Assembly (NCBI RefSeq): GCF_035594765.1
Contig: NC_085846.1
Span: 955,513 to 1,019,512 of the forward strand
DNA length: 64,000 nt
DNA from: Anolis carolinensis
Lineage: Eukaryota
Reading direction: 5' to 3'
Made by a program: the position numbers and the translations under genes. Positions 22,154 through 54,369 of this stretch are shown piece by piece. How positions within the stretch are numbered: position 1 is the stretch's first letter; each line of letters starts with the position of its first letter. The notes under the pieces were generated by a model. The model saw only the letters and a list, made by a program, of their open reading frames with translations, did not search any database and had not been told where the DNA came from.

Positions 22154-25100
22154 ATGGTGAGTTTCCAGGGAGACGGAGGGAGGCGCGGGGGGGGGGGCGA
22201 GGGGGCGCTCGGTCCCTCATTCATCCGGTCTCATCCGGGTCTCTCCCGTCCCTCGTTCGCGTTGGCAGGCCTCTTCCGCGGCGTCGGCGGCGCTGACGCA
22301 AGGCCTGGAGCGCGTCCCGGACCAGACCGGGTACCTCGTCATCTGCGACGGAGCCGTGCTGGCGGTGAGGCGGGGGCGGGGCCTGGGAGACGGGGCGGGG
22401 CCTGGGAGAGGGAGTGACCGAGGATTCAGGGGTGGAGAGAAGGGGGCGGGGCCTGGGAGACGGGGGCGGGGCCTGGGAGAGGGAGTGACCGAGGATTCAG
22501 GGGTGGAGAGAAGGGGGCGGAGCCTGGGAGACGGGGGCGGGGCCTGGGAGAGGGAGTGACCGAGGATTCAGGAGTGGAGAGAAGGGGGCGGGGCCTGGGA
22601 GAGGGGGGCGGGGCCTGGGAGAGGGAGTGACCGAGGATTCAGGGGTGGAGAGAAGGGGGCGGGGCCTGGGAGACGGGGGCGGGGCCTGGGAGAGGGAGTG
22701 ACCGAGGATTCAGGGGTGGAGAGAAGGGGGCGGAGCCTGGGAGACGGGGGCGGGGCCTGGGAGAGGGAGTGACCGAGGATTCAGGGGTGGAGAGAAGGGG
22801 GCGGAGCCTGGGAGGGGGGCGGGGCCGGGGAAGGCTGGGAGTGAGGATTGAGAGGGGGCGGGGCCTGGGAGGGGGCGTGGTTGAGGACCGCTTTGAGTCC
22901 CCCTGGGTCAGTGTTTCTCACCCTGGGGGTTGGGACCCCGGGGGGGGGTCGCGAAGGGGGTTTCAGAGAGGTCGCTAAAGACCACCATATTTCTGATGGT
23001 CTTAGGAACCCAAATCCCTCCAGTATTTCCTGCCTGTCATGGGGATTCTTTGGGCCAAGTTTGGTTCAGCTCCATCGTTGGTGGGGTCCAAGGGGCTCTT
23101 TGATTGTAGGTGAACTATAAATCCCAGCAACTACCACTCCCAAATGTCAAGGACGATTTCCCCCAAACTCCACCAGTGCTCCCATTTGGGCATCTTGAGT
23201 ATTGGTGCCAAGTTTGGTCCAGATCCATCATTGTTTGAGTCACTTCACTTCACTTTATTTCTTAATTACTCGCTCTCCACCAGGGTGCTCTGAGCAACTT
23301 ACAATTTAAAATATCATTCCACAATATAAAAAAATACAACATAAAAACATTCAACAGTGACTGTTGTATGTCTTTCGAGCTGTGTGGCCATGTTCCAGAA
23401 GCATTCTCTCCTGACGTTTCGCCCACATCTATGGCAGGCATCCTCTGAGGATGCCTGCCATAGATGTGGGCGAAACGTCAGGAGAGAATGCTTCTGGAAC
23501 ATGGCCACACAGCCCGAAAGACATACAACAACCCTGTGATCCTGGCCATGAAAGCCTTTGACAATTCAACAGTGACTATTTGGCAAATTAGATCTGATTT
23601 ACTTCAATGGACAACCAAACAGCCAAGTCTTGAGTCCACGATGCTCTCTGGATGTAGGTGAACTACAACTCCCAAACTCAAGGTCAGTGCCCACCCACCA
23701 AACCCTTCCAGTGTTTCCTGTGGGTCATGGGAGTTCTGTGTGCCAAGTTTGGTTCAGTTCCAGAATGCTCTTTGATTGTAGGTGAACTCTAAATCCCAGC
23801 AACTACAACTCCAAAATGGCAAAACCAATCCCTTCCTGAACCCACCAGTATTCAAAGCTGGGCGTATTGGGTACTTGTGCCAAATGTGGTCCAGTGAATG
23901 AAAATACATCCTGCATATCAGATATTTACGTGACGATTCATAACAGTTGCTAAAGGACAGTGATGAAGTAGCAACAGAAATAATGTGATGGTTGGGGGGG
24001 GGGGGGTCACCACCACATGAGGAACTGGATTAAGGGGGTGGCGGCATTAGGAGGGTTGAGAACCACTGCCCCAGGTAAAGGTAAAGGTTTTCCCCTGACG
24101 TTAGGTCTTGTTGTGTCTGACTCTGGGGGTTGGGGCTCATCTCCATTCCTAAGCCGAAGAGCTGGCGTTGTCCGTAGACGTCTCCAAGGTCATGTGGCCA
24201 CAGGCATGGCTGCATGGAGCGCCCTAGGAGTGAGAAAAGCAGTCTACAAAATAAATCCTAATACTAGACACAGAGCTGCTTTGAGTCTCCAGGTGGAGAG
24301 AGAAGGTGGGGTATAGATAAACCTAATGCTAATACTAGGAGCCCCGGTGGCAAAGTGTGTTAAAGCGCTGAGCTGCTGAACTTGCAGACCAAAAGGTCCC
24401 AGGTTCAAATCCCGGGAGCGGAATGAGCGCCTGCTGTTAGCTCCAGCTCCTGCCAACCTAGCAGTTCGAAAACATGCCAATGTGAGTAGATCAATAGGTA
24501 CCACCCCGGTGGGAAGGTAACGGTGCTCCATGCAGACATGCCAGTGGCCACATGACCTTGGAGGGGTCTACAGACAACGCCGGCTCTTTGGCTTAGAAAT
24601 GGAGATGAGCACCAGAGTCCCAGAGTCAGACATGACTGGACTTAACGTCAGGGGAAACCTTGACCTTTACCTTAATGCTAGTACTAATTCCCCTCCTTGG
24701 CTGACCCCCTCCCTCCCCCTCCCCTTTGCAGTCAGCGGGTGACCTGGAGAATGACGAGCGCACGGCGGCGGCCCTCTCGGAGCTGGCCAGCACCGCCTGC
24801 GCCTTCCGCCTGCCGCGCTCCACGGACGTGCCCTTCCGGCGCATCTCAGGTGAGAGGAGGGGAAGGGGCCTTCTCTGGGGACACCCCCACCCCCCACTTT
24901 CGTGCTGGGGAAACGGGCAGGGGGCCAGGGTTGGGTTGTTGTGTCACATATCAAGTCAGTGCCCTTTGGCTTTACTCCTGCAGGATTCTGGGAAATGTAG
25001 TCAAAGGCAGGGCCTTTGGGATTCCCAGCCAAGCAGGTCCCGTCTCCCCTGAACTACATTTCCCAGAATTCTGCTGTGATGCAGGGCTTCATCCCACGTC

Positions 25101-33757: not shown

Positions 33758-36700
33758 TCAGCAGTTAGGATTGGTGAGAGTTGGAGTCCAAAACACCTGG
33801 AGGGAGGGCTGAAGTTGGCCCAGGCCTGTTCTAAAGAGATGCAGGGAGGCAGTGGATTGGCAGGGCCTCACCTGTAGTGCGTGTAGATGCTGGCGGTGAA
33901 GGGCAGCTTGGGGGTCGACCACTGGACCACCGCGATGAGAGGGACCTCCAGGCCCTGGGGGGGGGGGGAGAAGAGGCATCGACTTGGCCAGGACATTGGG
34001 GAGGGGGCACGGACTGCAGCCCCTTCCTCCCTCCCTGCCAAGAGCCAGGCTCCCCGCGCTCCCTCCTCACCTCCTTGGCGCTGCTGGGGGGCTGCTCGGG
34101 GGCCTGGAGCTGGAAGAGGAAGTTCTGCTCCTCAAGGGCCCGGAGGGAGCACGAGGCCGAGGAAGAGGAAGAGGAAGAGGAAGAGGAGGAGGAGACGCGG
34201 CAGAAGGAGGCCATGGAGACCTCGCCCGACTGGTGGCTGCAAGAGAAGGAGGAGAATGAAGAAGAGAAGAGGGATCAATAAAGAGAAGATAGAGAATAAG
34301 AAGAAGGAGGAAGAGAAAGAGAAGGAGGAAGAAAAGGAGAAGAAAGAGAAGGAGAATAAGAAGGAGAGGAAGAGAAAGAGAAGACGGAGAAAGAAGAGGA
34401 GAAGAAAGAGAAGGAGAATAAGAAGGAGAGGAAGAGAAAGAGAAGAGGGAGAAAGAAGAGGAGAAGAAAGAGAAGGAGAATAAGAAGGAGAGGAAGAGAA
34501 AGAGAAGAGGGAGAAAGAAGAGGAGAAGAAAGTGAAGGAGAAGCAAGAGAAGACGGAGAATAAGAAGAAGGAGAGGAAGGAGGAGGAGGAAGAGAAAGAG
34601 AAGAGGGATCAATAGAGGAAGAGAAGACAGAGAATAAGAAGGAGGAAGAGAAAGAGAAGGAGAAAGAAAAGAAGAAGAAAGAGAAGGAGAATAAGAAGGA
34701 GAGGAAGAGAAAGAGAAGAGGGAGAAAGAAGAGGAGAAGAAAGTGAAGGAGAAGCAAGAGAAGACGGAGAATAAGAAGAAGGAGGAAGAGAAAGAGAAGG
34801 AGGAAGAAAAGAAGAAGAAAGAGAAGGAGAATAAGAAGGAAAGGAAGAGAAAGAGAAGAGGGAGAAAGAAGAAGAGAAGAAAGAGAAGGAGAATAAGAAG
34901 GAAAGGAAGAGAAAGAGAAGAGGGAGAAAGAAGAGGAGAAGAAAGAGAAGGAGAATAAGAAGGAGAGGAAGAGAAAGAGAAGACGGAGAAAGAAGAGGAG
35001 AAGAAAGAGAAGGAGAATAAGAAGGAGAGGAAGAGAAAGAGAAGGGGGAGAAAGAAAAGGAGAAGAAAGTGAAGGAGAAGCAAGAGAAGACGGAGAATAA
35101 GAAGAAGGAGAGGAAGGAGGAGGAGGAAGAGAAAGAGAAGAGGGATCAATAGAGGAGGAAGAGAAGACAGAGAATAAGAAGGAGGAAGAGAAAGAGAAGG
35201 AGAAAGAAAAGGAGAAGAAAGAGAAGGAGAATAAGGAGAGGAAGAGAAAGAGAAGAGGGAGAAAGAAAAGAAGAAGAAAGAGAAGGAGAATAAGAAGGAG
35301 AGGAAGAGAAAGAGAAGAGGGAGAAAGAAGAGGAGAAGAAAGTGAAGGAGAAGCAAGAGAAGACGGAGAATAAGAAGAAGGAGGAAGAGAAAGAGAAGGA
35401 GGAAGAAAAGAAGAAGAAAGAGAAGGAGAATAAGAAGGAAAGGAAGAGAAAGAGAAGAGGGAGAAAGAAGAAGAGAAGAAAGAGAAGGAGAATAAGAAGG
35501 AAAGGAAGAGAAAGAGAAGAGGGAGAAAGAAGAGGAGAAGAAAGAGAAGGAGAATAAGAAGGAGAGGAAGAGAAAGAGAAGACGGAGAAAGAAGAGGAGA
35601 AGAAAGAGAAGGAGAATAAGAAGGAGAGGAAGAGAAAGAGAAGGGGGAGAAAGAAAAGGAGAAGAAAGTGAAGGAGAAGCAAGAGAAGACGGAGAATAAG
35701 AAGAAGGAGAGGAAGGAGGAGGAGGAAGAGAAAGAGAAGAGGGATCAATAGAGGAGGAAGAGAAGACAGAGAATAAGAAGGAGGAAGAGAAAGAGAAGGA
35801 GAAAGAAAAGGAGAAGAAAGAGAAGGAGAATAAGGAGAGGAAGAGAAAGAGAAGAGGGAGAAAGAAAAGAAGAAGAAAGAGAAGGAGAATAAGAAGGAGA
35901 GGAAGAGAAAGAGAAGAGGGAGAAAGAAGAGGAGAAGAAAGTGAAGGAGAAGCAAGAGAAGACGGAGAATAAGAAGAAGGAGGAAGAGAAAGAGAAGGAG
36001 GAAGAAAAGAAGAAGAAAGAGAAGGAGAATAAGAAGGAAAGGAAGAGAAAGAGAAGAGGGAGAAAGAAGAAGAGAAGAAAGAGAAGGAGAATAAGAAGGA
36101 AAGGAAGAGAAAGAGAAGAGGGAGAAAGAAGAGGAGAAGAAAGAGAAGGAGAATAAGAAGGAGAGGAAGAGAAAGAGAAGACGGAGAAAGAAGAGGAGAA
36201 GAAAGAGAAGGAGAATAAGAAGGAGAGGAAGAGAAAGAGAAGGGGGAGAAAGAAAAGGAGAAGAAAGTGAAGGAGAAGCAAGAGAAGACGGAGAATAAGA
36301 AGAAGGAGAGGAAGGAGGAGGAGGAAGAGAAAGAGAAGAGGGATCAATAGAGGAGGAAGAGAAGACAGAGAATAAGAAGGAGGAAGAGAAAGAGAAGGAG
36401 AAAGAAAAGGAGAAGAAAGAGAAGGAGAATAAGGAGAGGAAGAGAAAGAGAAGAGGGAGAAAGAAAAGAAGAAGAAAGAGAAGGAGAATAAGAAGGAGAG
36501 GAAGAGAAAGAGAAGACGGAGAAAGAAGAGGAGAAGAAAGAGGAGAAGAAAGAGATGACGGAGGAGAATAAGAAGAAGAGGAAGGAGGAGGAGAAAGAGG
36601 AGAAGGGGAAGAAGGGCTTAACGCCTGTCTGAGCCCCCCTGCCCAGGCCTCTCAGGAGGGGCCCTTGGTGGAAGGGGAAGGGGGAAGGGACATGAGCCCC

Positions 36701-44049: not shown

Positions 44050-44509
44050 CCCCGGAGGAGGAACAGGGAGGAAACGGACGGGGAGGAAGGGGAAGGAAGA
44101 GGCGAGGCAGGTGCAGAGGGCGCGCCGCCGGGGAGGCGTCCGGGGAGGGAGGGAGGGAGGGAGGGAGGAGGAGGAGGAAGGAGGAAGGAAGGAGGGAAGA
44201 AAGGAAGGAAGGAAGAAAAGCAAGGAGAAGGCGGCCCTCCTCCTCCCCGAAGGCCCGCCCACTGCCCCTCCCTCCCTCCCTCCCTCCCCCGCTTCCGGTC
44301 AGTGATGCAACCATGCCCCCCCCCCGACACACCGGAAACCAAGGGCGGGGCCTCCCCGGAGAGAAGCGCTTCCGTGACTGTGAGATTTCCAAGCTGCCTG
44401 CGCACGACTTTCCAGCAGCAGCAGCAGCATCCTCTCCTTGCGTTCCGCCTGCACCTGTGCCTCTTGGCATCTTCACAGGCTGTGTCGGAAATGCGGCAAG
44501 TGGCTAGAC

Positions 44510-45914
44510 CAGGGGTCTCCAAACTAAGGCCCGGGGGCCGGATGCGGCCCGCCGAGGTCATTGACCTGGCCCCTGTCTTAAACTTTAGACTTAGGGTTGA
44601 CCTAAGTCTAGCTGGTTTTTGGAGGTCTCTTTGCTTACCTATGGTCTTATGAGATTGTCTAGATAGTCTTTGAAGGTCTCTTTGCTTAGCTACGGCCTTA
44701 TGAGACCATCTAGATGGCTTTTGGAGGTCCCTTTCCTTACCTATGGTTTTATGAGATTCTAGATGGCCTTTGGAGGCTTCTTTCCTTACCTATGGTCTTA
44801 TGAGATCATCTAGATAGTCTTTGGAGGTCTCTTTGCTTACCTATGGTCTTATGAGATCGTCTAGATCAGGGGTCCCCAAACTAAGGCCCATGGGCCGGAT
44901 GCGGCCCTCCAAGGTCATTGACCTGGCCCCTGTCTTAAACTTTAGACTTAGGGTTGACCTAAGTCTAGCTGGTTTTTGGAGGTCTCTTTGCTTACCTATG
45001 GTCTTATGAGATTGTCTAGATAGTCTTTGAAGGTCTCTTTGCTTAGCTACGGCCTTATGAGACCATCTAGATGGCTTTTGGAGGTCCCTTTCCTTACCTA
45101 TGGTTTTATGAGATTCTAGATGGCCTTTGGAGGCTTCTTTCCTTACCTATGGTCTTATGAGATCATCTAGATAGTCTTTGGAGGTCTCTTTGCTTACCTA
45201 TGGTCTTATGAGATCGTCTAGATCAGGGGTCCCCAAACTAAGGCCCATGGGCCGGATGCGGCCCTCCAAGGTCATTGACCTGGCCCCTGTCTTAAACTTT
45301 AGACTTAGGGTTGACCTAAGTCTAGCTGGTTTTTGGAGGTCTCTTTGCTTACCTATGGTCTTATGAGATTGTCTAGATAGTCTTTGAAGGTCTCTTTGCT
45401 TAGCTACGGCCTTATGAGACCATCTAGATGGCTTTTGGAGGTCCCTTTCCTTACCTATGGTTTTATGAGATTCTAGATGGCCTTTGGAGGCTTCTTTCCT
45501 TACCTATGGTCTTATGAAACCATCTAGGTGGTCTTTGAGGTTCCTTTCCTTATCTATGGGCTTCTGATGGTCTGATGAGATCATCTAGATGGGCTTTGAG
45601 GGTCCCTTTCCTTACCGATGGTCTTATGAGATCATCTAGATGGTCTTTGGAGGTCTCTTTGCTTACCTATGGTCTTATGAGATCGTCTAGATCAGGGGTC
45701 CCCAAACTAAGGCCCATGGGCCGGATGCGGCCCTCCAAGGTCATTGACCTGGCCCCTGTCTTAAACTTTAGACTTAGGGTTGACCTACGTCTGAAATGAC
45801 TTGGAAGGCACACAAAAACAATCCTAATTTTGGAGTATTTCATCATAGTCTGGCCCCCCAACACTCGGAGGGACTGTGAATCAGCCCTTCACTTAAAAAG
45901 TTTGAGGACCCCTG
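44510..45914 (+). mobile_element. hAT (Charlie-like) non-autonomous element with 357-bp internal tandem duplications
   Basis: CAGGGGTC..CAAACT left end at 44510, 44867, 45224 and 45693; single right end ...GACCCCTG at 45914; TSD GGCTAGAC/GTCTAGAC. Confidence 0.75.
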
Positions 45915-48366: not shown

Positions 48367-51300
48367 CTACGCTGGGGCGGGGCGGGTGGCGTTCCCCTTG
48401 GGGGGGAACTGCTTGGCGTCCAGCAGGTCCTTGTACTGCAGCTCGGGGGTGACCAGGCGGCGGCAGCGCTGGCTCCAGGGGGGCCGGAGGCCGGGGCGCA
48501 GGGCGTACCCCAGGATGGGGGCCTGGCCGAACTGGAAGGGCCGCACGGCCTGGTCGGGGATGTGGGTGGGCTCCAGGGGGCCCCCTCCCCGCAGGCAGCG
48601 CCCCTCCCGCTCCGCCCGCAGCGCCCGCAGCCGCCCCACCGCCTCCGCCAGGCGCCCCCGCCCGAAGCGCTCCGCCCGCTCCCAGAAGGAGGCGTTGAAG
48701 TGGACGTACAGCTGCCAGTCCAGGTGGTTCCAGGCCCGGAGGCGGGCCGCGTCCAGGGGGCTCAGGGCGGGGGCCCGGGCCCGCGGGCTGCGCAGGTTGT
48801 GCCGGAAGGCCACCACGTCCTCCAGGGCCCAGCACAGCGCCTCCGCCAGCAGCACCAGAGACTCGTCCATGTGCTCCGTCAGCAGCACCAGGTCGAAGGT
48901 GCGGTCCAGGCCGGCCAGAGCCTCCCGGACGGGGCCCGGGCCGGGGGCCGAGGGGGGGTCCAGCCCGAAGTCGAACCACAGCAGGTTGCGGGCGTAGTGG
49001 TTGCCGCGCTCGCCCGGGCGGAAGAAGCGCTGCGGGGCGGCCAGGAAGGCGGGCAGGGAGGGCGCGCGGCGGAAGGCGGAGGCCACCCCGCGGAAGTAGG
49101 AGAAGGCCGACTCCGCCAGCGAGACCGGGTCCCGCACCACCGAGAAGTAGAAGCTGTCCCCAGGGACCACCTTCCGCACCTGCAAGGAGAACCCGAGGCA
49201 GCACTCAGGCACACCTGCGCGACTGACACACGGCCCCCGGCCCTTCGGAAGAAGAACCAAACCATCAGAGGGAGGCAAGGACAGACCAGGCCTGGGCACA
49301 CTTCGGCCCTCCCTCCCGGTGTTTTGGACCCCAACCTGTAGGCTGTTAGGAATTGTGGGAGTCCAAAACACCTGGAGGATCAAAGTTGGCACAGGCCTGA
49401 GCTAGACAGACGAATGGATGGATAAAAAGGTGGATGGATGGACAGATGGATGGATGGGTAGACAGACAGAAAGGTCAATAGATAGACTGATAAGTAGATT
49501 GGATGGATGGATGAGTAGATAGATAAACAGATGGATAGATGGATACATAGATCAATAGACAGATGGACGGACAGATGAATAGGTAGGTAGGTAGATGAAC
49601 AGACAGACAGGCAGAAAGCTCAATAAATACATCAATAGGTAGACTGTATGGATGGATTAGTAGATAGGTCATTGTAGGCTTTCAATGCCCGGGCAATATA
49701 CAGGTTTGCAATGACAATCAGCCCTTTAAAGGCAACCGTGAGATGAGGCTGATGTGGGCCTCGGTGAAGGGTCATGCTGAGGGAAAGCGAGGGCTCTCTT
49801 GCAAAGAAGGACCTTTGACTCCTTGCTTTGGGAGGGGGGCTGTGTGCTGTTGGCTCCCCTGGAAGCCCCCCCCCACTCTCTTTTCATGCTCTCTGCACAT
49901 GCTCAGATGCGACATTTGCACCCATGCACATGCTCTCTGCACATGCTCAGATGCACCATTTGCACTCATGCCCATGCTCTCTGCACATGCTCAGATGCAC
50001 CATTTGCACCCATGCCCATGCTCTCTGCACATGCTCAGATGCGCCATTTGCACTCATGCCCATGCTCTCTGCACATGCTCAGATGCGCCATTTGCACCCA
50101 TGCCCATGCTCTCTGCACATGCTCAGATGCACCATTTGCACCCATGCCCATGCTCTCTGCACATGCTCAGATGCACCATTTGCACGCATGCCCATGCTCT
50201 CTGCACATGCTCAGATGCGACATTTGCACCCATGCACATGCTCTCTGCACATGCTCAGATGCACCATTTGCACTCATGCACATGCTCTCTGCACATGCTC
50301 AGATGCACCATTTGCACCCATGCCCATGCTCTCTGCACATGCTCAGATGCGCCATTTGCACTCATGCCCATGCTCTCTGCACATGCTCAGATGCGCCATT
50401 TGCACCCATGCCCATGCTCTCTGCACATGCTCAGATGCACCATTTGCACCCATGCCCATGCTCTCTGCACATGCTCAGATGCACCATTTGCACGCATGCC
50501 CATGCTCTCTGCACATGCTCAGATGCGACATTTGCACCCGTGCCCATGCTCTCTGCACATGCTCAGATGCGCCATTTGCACCCATGCCCATGCTCTCTGC
50601 ACATGCTCAGATGCACCATTTGCACGCATGCCCATGCTCTCTGCACATGCTCAGATGCGACATTTGCACCCGTGCCCATGCTCTCTGCACATGCTCAGAT
50701 GCGCCATTTGCACCCGTGCCCATGCTCTCTGCACATGCTCAGATGCACCATTTGCACCCATGCCCATGCTCTATGCACATGCTCAGATGCACCATTTGCA
50801 CACATGCCCATGCTCTCTGCACATGCTCAGATGCACCATTTGCACCCATGCCCATGCTCTCTGCACATGCTCAGATGCACCATTTGCATCCATGCCCATG
50901 CTCTCTGCACATGCTCAGATGCACTCATGCCCATGCTCTGTGCATGCTTGGGTGCACCGTTTGCACCCATGCCATTCTACTGGGGACCTCCAGCTCTGCG
51001 CATGCCCAGACGCATTGTTTGCACCCATGCTATTCTACTGGGAACCTTCGCCAGAGGGGAAACCTATGCTCCCTGCATATGCGCAAGTGCACCATCTGCA
51101 CCCATGCCACCCTACTGGCACACATTCCAACCCTCCTGCCCCCAAGCCCCCCCCCCCCCCCGCACATCCCTTGGGCCACTGACCTCGGGCAGGTTGAAGC
51201 GCATGTGGTGGCAGAGCAGGTCAAAGGGGCGGCCGCGGGGGTGCCAGCCCTTGACCCTCCGCGCCTGGAAGAGGCTGGGGTAGCTGAACTGGTAGCGGGC

Positions 51301-51868
51301 GGGCAGGGCGAAGCGCAGGCCACGCAGGTCCCCAAAGCGGTGCAGGATGTTGACCACGGTGCTGCTGCCCGTCTTGTGCGTCTTCAGGAAGACCACGTGC
51401 TGCCGCGGCCGGCAGGTGGGGCTGGGGGAGGGGGGCAGGGGCTGCAGGAGGGGCTCCCTGTGGGAGGAGGAGGAGGTCATTGACACGTGTGCATGCCGTC
51501 CCATACGCGTGGCCCCCTCCCCTCCCCTCCCTCTTGCCCTGCTCTGCCCTTGGCTTAGGCCAGGCAGGGACCAACTTCGGCCCTCCCTCCAGGTGTTTTG
51601 GACTCCAACTCCCACAATTCCTAGCAGATGGTATATTATTATTATTATTATTTAATGTTATTATGTTTTACTGTTACATTATTTTTATAATTATATTATT
51701 ATTATTATACAGAGATAGGTACGTAGATACATAATAGACATAGATTGTACATAGATAAATAAATAGATAGATACATATATGCAGAGATAGATCGATACAT
51801 ACATGCATACATACCTAGGTAGGTAGATACATAGTTAGATACATACAAATATACATACAGAGATATGA

Positions 51869-51929
<61 letters not shown>

Positions 51930-52293
51930 TGGGCCAGCTCTATCTGCCTAGAAGATCAGGGGGCAGAGGACTCTTACAAGTAAAACAAGCAGTCAAAGAA
52001 GAAGAACATGCCCTGGCAGAATATGTCAAGCAAAGTGAAGAATTTCTTGGATTGAAGTCAAAAACCAGAAACTCCTCAAAGCACAGCAGACAAAAAACCA
52101 GTACAAGAAAACCACACTACAAACTAGAGCTGACAGCTGGGACAACAAAACATTGTATGGAAAGTTCCTTGACAAAATTGAAGGAAAAGCTGATAAGGAG
52201 AAGACCTGGCTCTGGCTCACGAATGGGACCCTGAAGAAGGAGACAGAAGGCCTGATCCTTGCAGCCCAGGAGCAAGACCTCAGGACAAAGGCA

Positions 52294-52330
<37 letters not shown>

Positions 52331-52424
52331 GAAGACCTGGCTCTGGCTCACGAATGGGACCCTGAAGAAGGAGACAGAAGGCCTGATCCTTGCAGCCCAG
52401 GAGCAAGACCTCAGGACAAAGGCA

Positions 52425-52458
<34 letters not shown>

Positions 52459-52552
52459 GAAGACCTGGCTCTGGCTCACGAATGGGACCCTGAAGAAGGA
52501 GACAGAAGGCCTGATCCTTGCAGCCCAGGAGCAAGACCTCAGGACAAAGGCA

Positions 52553-52616
<64 letters not shown>

Positions 52617-52710
52617 GAAGACCTGGCTCTGGCTCACGAATGGGACCCTGAAGAAGGAGACAGAAGGCCTGATCCTTGCAGCCCAAGAGCAAGACATCAG
52701 AACAAAGGCA

Positions 52711-52744
<34 letters not shown>

Positions 52745-52838
52745 GAAGACCTGGCTCTGGCTCACGAATGGGACCCTGAAGAAGGAGACAGAAGGCCTGA
52801 TCCTTGCAGCCCAGGAGCAAGACATCAGGACAAAGGCA

Positions 52839-52884
<46 letters not shown>

Positions 52885-52978
52885 GAAGACCTGGCTCTGG
52901 CTCACGAATGGGACCCTGAAGAAGGAGACAGAAGGCCTGATCCTTGCAGCCCAAGAGCAAGACATCAGAACAAAGGCA

Positions 52979-53012
<34 letters not shown>

Positions 53013-53106
53013 GAAGACCTGGCTCTGGCTCACGAATGGGACCCTGAAGAAGGAGACAGAAGGCCTGATCCTTGCAGCCCAGGAGCAAGACCTCAGGACA
53101 AAGGCA

Positions 53107-53155
<49 letters not shown>

Positions 53156-53253
53156 GAAGACCTGGCTCTGGCTCACGAATGGGACCCTGAAGAAGGAAGG
53201 AGACAGAAGGCCTGATCCTTGCAGCCCAGGAGCAAGCCATCAGGACAAAGGCA

Positions 53254-53302
<49 letters not shown>

Positions 53303-54090
53303 GAAGACCTGGCTCTGGCTCATGAATGGGACCCTGAAGAAGGAGGCAGAAGGCCTGATCCTTGCAGCCCAGGAGCAAGACATCAGGACAAAGGCAATTA
53401 AGGCCAAGATCCAAAAATCAGCTGATGACCCAAAATGCAGACTGTGCAAGGAAACCGATGAAACCATTGATCATATCCTCAGCTGCTGTAAGAAAACTGC
53501 ACAGACTGACTACAAACAGAGGCACAACTATGTGGCCCAAATGATTCATTGGAACTTATGCCTCAAGTACCACCTCCCAGCAGCAAAGAACTGGTGGGAT
53601 CACAAACCTGCAAAAGTCTTGGAAAATGAGCACGCAAAGATACTGTGGGACTTCCGGATCCAGACTGACAAAGTTCTGGAACACCACACACCAGACATCA
53701 CAGTTGTGGAAAAGAAAAAGGTTTGGATCATTGATGTTGCCATCCCAGGTGACAGTCACATTGACGAAAAACAACAGGAAAAATTCAGCCGCTCTCAGGA
53801 CCTCAAGATTGAACTTCAAAGACTCTGGCAGAAACCAGTGCAGGTGGTCCCGGTGGTGATGGGCACACTGGGTGCTGTGCCAAAAGATCTCAGCCACTGG
53901 CATTTGGAAACAATAGACATTGACAAAATCACGATTTGCCAGCTGCAAAAGGCCACCCTGCTGGGATCTGCGCGCATCATCCGAAAATACATCACACAGT
54001 CCAAGACACTTGGGAAGTGTTCGACTTGTGATTTTGTGATAGGAAATCCAGCATTTCTATCTTGTTTGCTGTGTCATACAATAAAATTAA

Positions 54091-54133
<43 letters not shown>

Positions 54134-54354
54134 GGTTGTTAGGAATTGTGGGATTTGGAGTCCGAAACACCTGGAGGAGGGCCCCCGCTGGCCCGTGCCC
54201 GGGAGCAAAGGGAGCAAGGGGAGCGTCACCTCTTCTGGAAGGAGACCCCCAAGAGCTGCAGGGCGAAGCCGATGGTCATGGAGGCGGCCAGGGCGGCCCA
54301 CAGCACTTGCGGGTGGCGGCAGCAGCAGCAGCAGACGCCCAGAAGGGCCTTCAT
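48367..54354 (-). CDS. GAL3ST4: Galactose-3-O-sulfotransferase 4, 403 aa; exons 54354-54230, 51457-51184, 49179-48367
   Basis: Type II TM anchor MTIGFALQLLG, 5'-PSB FLKTHKTGSST, 3'-PB FSVVRDP..LAESAFSY, ARNLLWFDFG and TPELQYKD. Phases are consistent; candidate AATAAA (minus) at 47222-47227. Confidence 0.95.
49885..50938. repeat. 44-bp minisatellite, ~24 copies, last GAL3ST4 intron
   Basis: Unit CATGCTCTCTGCACATGCTCAGATGCACCATTTGCACCCATGCC. Confidence 0.95.
51928..54090 (+). mobile_element. Dong/R4-clade non-LTR retroelement, 5'-truncated, in (AAT)n
   Basis: CRLC....ETIDHILSCC knuckle, RHN, PDITVV...IIDVAIPGD restriction-like endonuclease; flanked by (AAT)n on both sides. Confidence 0.88.
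52199..53396 (+). repeat. Composite array: 9 copies of a ~95-bp Dong segment separated by 8 variable (AAT)n tracts
   Basis: AGAAGACCTGG starts at ~52199, 52330, 52458, 52616, 52744, 52884, 53012, 53155 and 53302. Confidence 0.93.
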
Positions 54355-54369
54355 CCTGTCAAGGGGAAG

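Follow-up and report, generated by a model that had tools for sequence, protein, structure and literature searches.

Dong elements belong to the R4 clade and are of the RLE type. Dispersed LINE copies are usually taken as independent fossils, and their trees and divergence are used to date bursts of activity. Subtelomeric GC-rich minisatellites mutate by conversion-like transfer, and non-allelic conversion occurs among Alu and LTR copies.

According to the accessible text of PMC3812793, Dong elements target TAA, and PMC5389967 places the R4 clade in Anolis in its accessible part. Minisatellites derived from transposable elements (TEs) are already known. Those described in the accessible part of PMC9659126 include the MaLR-derived Ms6-hm/Hm-2, Alu minisatellites, the CR1 ORF2-derived HinfI and the LINE ORF2-derived PROsat. 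Remodelling of a VNTR at the DNA level is also known (PMC4432496, accessible text). In anoles, ~90% of crossovers are reported from the distal 20% of macrochromosome arms, and gBGC is reported to leave little trace in GC content (both from the accessible part of PMC5599703).

We analysed a window of 64,000 nucleotides from Anolis carolinensis (C6:0.96-1.02 Mb; genome 1.85 Gb) that contains a repeat array inside a truncated retroelement. This array is one of ~558 copies of a minisatellite (a 98-bp ORF piece plus an AAT spacer) that reside in dead Dong-like elements near chromosome ends. The copies probably descend from one chimeric junction, spread by ectopic conversion into already inserted elements and expanded as a VNTR.

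Sequence inspection and blastn confirmed nine units of 95-102 bp each that alternate with eight (AAT)10-21 spacers, in agreement with an earlier sequence-only reading of nine ~95-bp copies between AAT tracts. All parts of the insertion lie on the plus strand. An (AAT)20 upstream target tract forms the 5' junction of the insertion (51869..51928). The left arm that follows (51929..52198, 270 bp; blastn) is a 5'-truncated, frameshifted piece of the element ORF from the post-RT region upstream of the unit, and it is 94.6% identical to a full-length copy. Unit 1 (52199..52293) is continuous with the left arm and covers ORF codons ~909-941, just before the CCHC knuckle. The array body (52294..53301) holds the eight spacers, with 12, 11, 21, 10, 14, 10, 16 and 15 AAT units in order, and units 2-8 (52330-52424, 52458-52552, 52616-52713, 52744-52841, 52884-52981, 53012-53106 and 53155-53256). 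Unit 9 opens the right arm (53302..54090), which includes the CCHC knuckle, motifs of a restriction-like endonuclease and the 3' UTR and extends to the normal 3' end. Its zf-RVT match (E=1e-4) falls under the curated cut-off. The 3' (AAT)n tail and the downstream target tract occupy 54080..54133.

Comparison with a full-length copy by blastn also upheld the reading's claim that the element's normal sequence resumes on the left of unit 1 and on the right of unit 9. The unit variants that it listed are present as well: units 1-3 and 7 have two changes in common and join AAT directly, and unit 8 carries an additional GAAG, a variant that recurs in 9 arrays. Two additional changes are common to units 4 and 6. 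The 3' break lies, as proposed, at an AAT-like microhomology. A CRISPR-like repeat-spacer array was considered and rejected; every spacer is (AAT)n, and none is a unique acquired sequence.

Downstream of the insertion, we identified a minus-strand host exon of the galactose-3-O-sulfotransferase family (51184..51459; PF06990, E=2e-25). A translation with a hydrophobic N-terminus at 54231..54357 on the minus strand is likely the gene's first coding exon. This putative upstream exon would place the element antisense within a sulfotransferase intron. Other repeats in the window include minisatellites at 49885-50924 (44 bp x 23.6) and 22372-22831 (71 bp x 6.5), a 357 bp x 3 repeat at 44504-45692 and a long GA-rich array at 34241-36615. 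The other minisatellites are in keeping with a subtelomeric VNTR-rich region.

We identified four full-length relatives of the host element. They are ~3.74 kb long, 96-98% alike and bordered by AAT tracts on both sides in 4/4 cases, and such tracts also border most truncated copies on both sides. One copy (L241) retains an open single ORF of 1141 aa with a reverse transcriptase domain (RVT_1, E=2e-29), and the best PDB matches of the element protein are R2 proteins. Translations contain a C-terminal knuckle and PD-(D/E)xK-type motifs, which we take to be a CCHC knuckle and an RLE-type endonuclease; the zf-RVT match is weak and below cut-off. These features support the earlier reading in that the element is an AAT-flanked retroelement with RT, CCHC and RLE. 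Judged by structure and target, the element appears Dong-like, that is, a candidate member of Dong in the R4 clade. PMC3812793 (accessible part) classes Dong as APE-type, which differs from the element here; none of the 4 Pfam matches of its ORF is an APE domain.

We identified 3469 genome-wide matches to the exact 5' junction and 2123 to one form of the 3' junction. Reversed-pattern controls for both junctions gave 0 genome matches, so the array structure is not due to chance. A last-unit pattern, which approximates the number of loci with arrays, has 558 matches, at least one of which (L200) is a plain 5'-truncated copy. The plain element context without an array has 5343. Forward-strand counts of left starts (293 first-unit matches) and right ends (273 last-unit matches) are alike; most reverse matches to the first-unit pattern were counted twice, and it also matches a few internal units. 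A search for other copies with the same breakpoints, which the sequence-only reading had suggested, thus found ~558 loci that share both. Its alternative of a unique locus with an ordinary VNTR is wrong, and the occurrence of the junction patterns at hundreds of loci rules it out.

We fetched 92 regions for arrays and tabulated 91 arrays with the 5' end in view, the window included; L206, L227, L234, L235 and L239 were cut off or nested and were omitted. The architecture is constant over the 91 arrays: a truncated left arm, 1-50 junctions (median 2) and a right arm. Spacers average 12.6 AAT units (621 spacers), and ~3469 AAT tracts have been multiplied inside elements.

Placement is based on the first 100 of the 558 matches, which cover C1-C4 wholly; the loci beyond those 100 listed matches likely sit on smaller chromosomes. 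On C1-C4, 74 of 76 last-unit matches are no more than 13.1 Mb from a contig end. The two exceptions are the plain copy L200 and L101, a true one-junction array. Plain copies, unlike arrays, extend into chromosome interiors. The first 1.25 Mb of C1 holds 12 arrays and 12 plain copies, and the stretch from 1.25 to 25.5 Mb holds 0 and 88 (p=6e-10). A rarer variant pattern has 21 matches. Twelve are on C1-C6, none more than 4.6 Mb from an end; the other 9 are on smaller contigs, in part away from the contig ends. L101 (C1:183.16 Mb), the sole true array in the C1-C4 interior, has end-type alleles and also the second junction described below; it may be a retrocopy, or an end that was relocated. No first-type array is among the matches listed for the other extremity of C1 (358-368 Mb), although the end-type point variant is frequent in that stretch and second-type arrays occur in it. 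L101 and this gap both weigh against the link with chromosome ends.

The second junction, in which AAT precedes the element's last 108 bp, has 4673 exact matches genome-wide. Its arrays have the element's last 108-113 bp as the unit (for example L091:6353-6866, L106, L118, L122, L233 and L237). At 20 interior C1 loci we found 11 single short AAT-flanked (SINE-like) insertions, and the rest had at most 4 pieces, as opposed to runs of 4-10 near chromosome ends. This pattern indicates that target-primed reverse transcription (TPRT) supplies AAT-separated direct repeats everywhere, while long arrays are seen mainly near ends.

Three further repeats were observed. L233:4800-5000 and public run X8 have one of ~37 bp, the third type of tandem repeat inside the element; it belongs to the left-arm region and lacks AAT. 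Contigs of other runs often have joints and loose ends that match it, mostly in organism B. L094:5200-6340 contains locus-specific ~175-bp units that combine an 80-bp element piece, unique sequence and (AAAT)n. The first 1.3 kb of L293 (minus strand) holds unrelated 113-116 bp units with AAT tracts between them and no match to the Dong-like element.

The best-surviving rival explanation, although an unlikely one, is that a non-autonomous one-junction subfamily was retrotransposed in trans, in the manner of SVA, with later array growth and with arms scrambled by conversion. As in TPRT products, the 5' truncation is particular to each locus and AAT flanks are usual, one junction alone is present in 26 of the 91 arrays, and the interior L101 with its end-type alleles could be such a retrocopy. 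However, TPRT products of this family reach the interior and arrays do not. A tree of 111 right arms, 57 of them array-bearing, requires 28 label changes, at least 9 of which are forced by strong branches, and a single clade of array-bearing arms is rejected (AU test, p-AU 0.0027). The array label is still weakly clustered on this tree (1/500 shuffles as low), on which many branches are weak; this clustering favours the subfamily. We found no diagnostic arm variant that separates arrays from plain end copies, which the array arms resemble.

Arrays also occur on both 3'-end types and in several subfamilies with both arms matching. Both arms of L218 and L094 are nearest to the array-free interior subfamily L186/L187/L191, and both arms of L228 and L114 to the array-free subfamily L190/L198. 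Differences between these four arrays and their subfamilies are scattered and are mostly alleles common in the pool. L103 has a clear subfamily match on the right arm only. The correlation between left and right arms is uninformative overall and is low in interior copies as well, so the argument from arms uses the named loci alone. A single array-bearing (SVA-like) subfamily was rejected as a candidate: the arrays form no clade, have no diagnostic variants and are not dispersed like products of the same enzyme.

Between 95 copies from chromosome ends (75 with arrays and 20 plain) and 27 from the interior of C1, we identified 18 end-enriched variants (p<0.05, uncorrected). Sixteen are AT>GC, 1 is GC>AT and 1 is neutral; the AT>GC excess (16 of 17) has a binomial p=6e-4. 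In older relatives (73-81%), the interior allele predominates at 10 sites and the end allele at 3, and 5 are uninformative; with polarity taken from one or two outgroup copies at most sites, the ancestral state is thus mostly the interior allele. Nine end-enriched alleles that we tested are nearly unlinked and thus do not mark an old subfamily; in 60 array arms, mean r2 is 0.02 beyond 100 bp. Interior copies have r2 of 0.06-0.075 beyond 20 bp versus 0.05 when shuffled, and arrays at equal n have 0.05-0.06. The mosaicism is only weakly end-specific, and part of it may reflect homoplasy or mosaic source elements; this weak linkage contrast is not one of the main arguments for exchange.

Plain copies near chromosome ends share in these alleles. 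For one end-enriched allele in plain copies, 35 of 37 C1 matches lie near ends. The arrays' typical unit alleles have frequencies of 70-85% in plain end copies versus 17-39% in the interior set, as expected if plain end copies acquired these alleles from arrays or are themselves arrays that collapsed. Copies near chromosome ends thus resemble a single pool that exchanges sequence with a GC bias. The small trace of gBGC in anole GC content argued for in PMC5599703 speaks against such a bias.

Several observations implicate local amplification in array growth. Among 764 units from 72 arrays, 18 variants are private to one array yet present in at least two of its units. The mean unit distance is 2.30 within arrays and 2.82 between arrays, and the permuted value is 2.56 (minimum 2.35 of 200). 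Private multi-unit variants and a within-array distance below 200/200 permutations thus point to local amplification, and the private variants fit the amplification of a chimeric junction that the earlier reading had offered as one of two routes. L231 has periodic spacer lengths, which together with the private variants show local duplication. The arrays are minisatellites and putative VNTRs, with head-to-tail units and signs of local amplification. L221 and L222 are 99% segmental duplicates of the same insertion with 2 and 1 junctions, a direct sign of post-insertion change. L123 and L124 are likewise 99% segmental duplicates that carry the same insertion.

Other observations concern exchange and new insertion. 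Common unit variants are mixed inside 16-35 of 42 arrays; this mixing and the recurrence of the GAAG variant suggest exchange between loci. Rare alternative unit starts (765, 782, 785, 797) recur as internal units that are 23, 6 or 3 bases longer or 9 shorter (L095, L203, L118, L227), and these units were possibly captured from other loci. L105 contains a clear new 5'-truncated insertion within a spacer. The proposal that each spacer is a fresh target is therefore possible, but such use is rare, with this one case among 91 arrays.

Transfer events, as read from one assembly, would proceed in three steps. The junction would have a single origin. One copy, broken at the AAT-like site, would have come to lie before the AAT tract of another copy whose 5' truncation was 98 bp further upstream, and a direct repeat around AAT would result. 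A break in a plain copy in a recombination-rich region would then be repaired on an array elsewhere; synthesis would cross the spacer and re-anneal by unit homology, and the plain copy would gain a unit and a spacer. The two-unit repeat would finally act as a VNTR, through unequal exchange or slippage, and would still swap units between loci. GC-biased traffic would spread AT>GC point variants over chromosome-end copies with or without arrays. A bolder version, which we consider possible but doubtful, is that the array is a self-spreading minisatellite that is parasitic on a LINE family and is not reverse transcribed. Arrays with more units would be more frequent repair donors, and spacer nicks by the endonuclease that Dong still encodes would drive turnover. 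Dead LINE copies at chromosome ends would be invaded in this way, and GC-biased conversion would pool thousands of dispersed copies.

We consider it somewhat less likely than trans mobilization of a subfamily that the duplication forms afresh at many loci, directed by sequence (a nick or slippage hotspot) and active where recombination is high. Polyphyly and end restriction fit such recurrence equally well, and the first two units of L218 are identical to the resident subfamily's unit. However, a plain copy contains nothing that could serve as template for the spacer, and nearly all units share a base-identical 5' breakpoint. Alternative starts partly match the 5' junctions of other loci, as capture predicts, and array-typical alleles are common to different chromosomes.

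Array construction during insertion, by an RT that re-primes or jumps between RNAs at AAT spacers, was the other route of the sequence-only reading and now appears improbable. Template jumping by R2-group RTs is known, the 3' break has its AAT-like microhomology, and unit diversity within an array is nearly that between arrays. End restriction is unexplained by this process, and location largely refutes it: arrays on C1-C4 are confined to ends, and plain TPRT products are not. Left arms are retained in 83/91 arrays and in 15/16 arrays with at least 10 junctions, for which the chance of copying through is at most 0.08 each under a crude exponential model with the plain-copy truncation rate. Left arms have a median length of 164 bp in arrays versus 178.5 bp in plain end copies (n=20; p=0.63), and this length is unrelated to that of the array (rho -0.16, p=0.16). 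We found no stand-alone unit or internally primed copy in C1-C3 interiors among the matches listed. The private variants and the L231 periodicity also argue for local duplication instead.

AAT-spaced repeats are difficult to assemble, but an assembly artefact is highly improbable, as hundreds of loci have distinct unit haplotypes, spacer lengths and private variants, and AAT loose ends lie at most 6 bases from the unit start in 3/4 independent runs among the matches listed (plain 5'-truncated copies can also give such ends). The right arm is present in 20/24 listed public runs under two organism labels; no RNA run is among the matches listed, which has no bearing on expression. Public contigs compared with a plain copy have mixed loose ends near both breakpoints, and the junction itself is masked as repeat.

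Spread by ectopic conversion, the reading that we prefer, has several consequences. An exchanging GC-biased pool would distort the ages of LINE copies and their assignment to subfamilies. Because the array marks conversion to the base, ectopic events could be counted with it, and it is expected to be present or absent at fixed orthologous insertions. It offers a test of gBGC in anoles, where the trace of gBGC is disputed. It would also be a route for a LINE to multiply its own target microsatellite.

In the literature covered, as far as its accessible text goes (PMC7140322, PMC4640811 and PMC12776774 included), we found no description of this array and no case in which dispersed LINE copies acquired an array ectopically. 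The element here resembles Dong and R4 elements in its single ORF with RT, CCHC and RLE-type motifs and in its AAT tracts on both sides. The accessible parts of PMC3812793 and PMC5389967 mention no unit-plus-AAT array, which is also absent here from the 5343 plain and four full-length copies. SVA and LAVA elements (PMC4432496, accessible text) similarly contain a VNTR inside a dispersed retroelement that is remodelled at the DNA level after insertion. The SVA VNTR is described there as part of the mobilised RNA and follows subfamilies, whereas the array here crosses subfamilies, is restricted to chromosome ends and has the element's own target as its spacer.

TE-derived satellites are also tandem repeats built from retroelement parts, ORF pieces included. 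Each of those described in the accessible part of PMC9659126 occupies a single locus or a large block; here, the same junction is found at hundreds of dispersed loci, each inside its own insertion. Microsatellite seeding by squamate LINEs (PMC6050309, accessible text) similarly multiplies A-rich microsatellites in association with LINEs. Seeding is described there for 3' tails during insertion, whereas AAT tracts here multiply inside elements, likely after insertion.

Subtelomeric minisatellites and Alu/LTR conversion share with these arrays a clustering at chromosome ends, recombination-linked turnover and a patchwork of variants. To our knowledge, transfers in those systems are mostly allelic or point-variant changes. 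In the system described here, by contrast, copies without an array would acquire a complete one by ectopic transfer.
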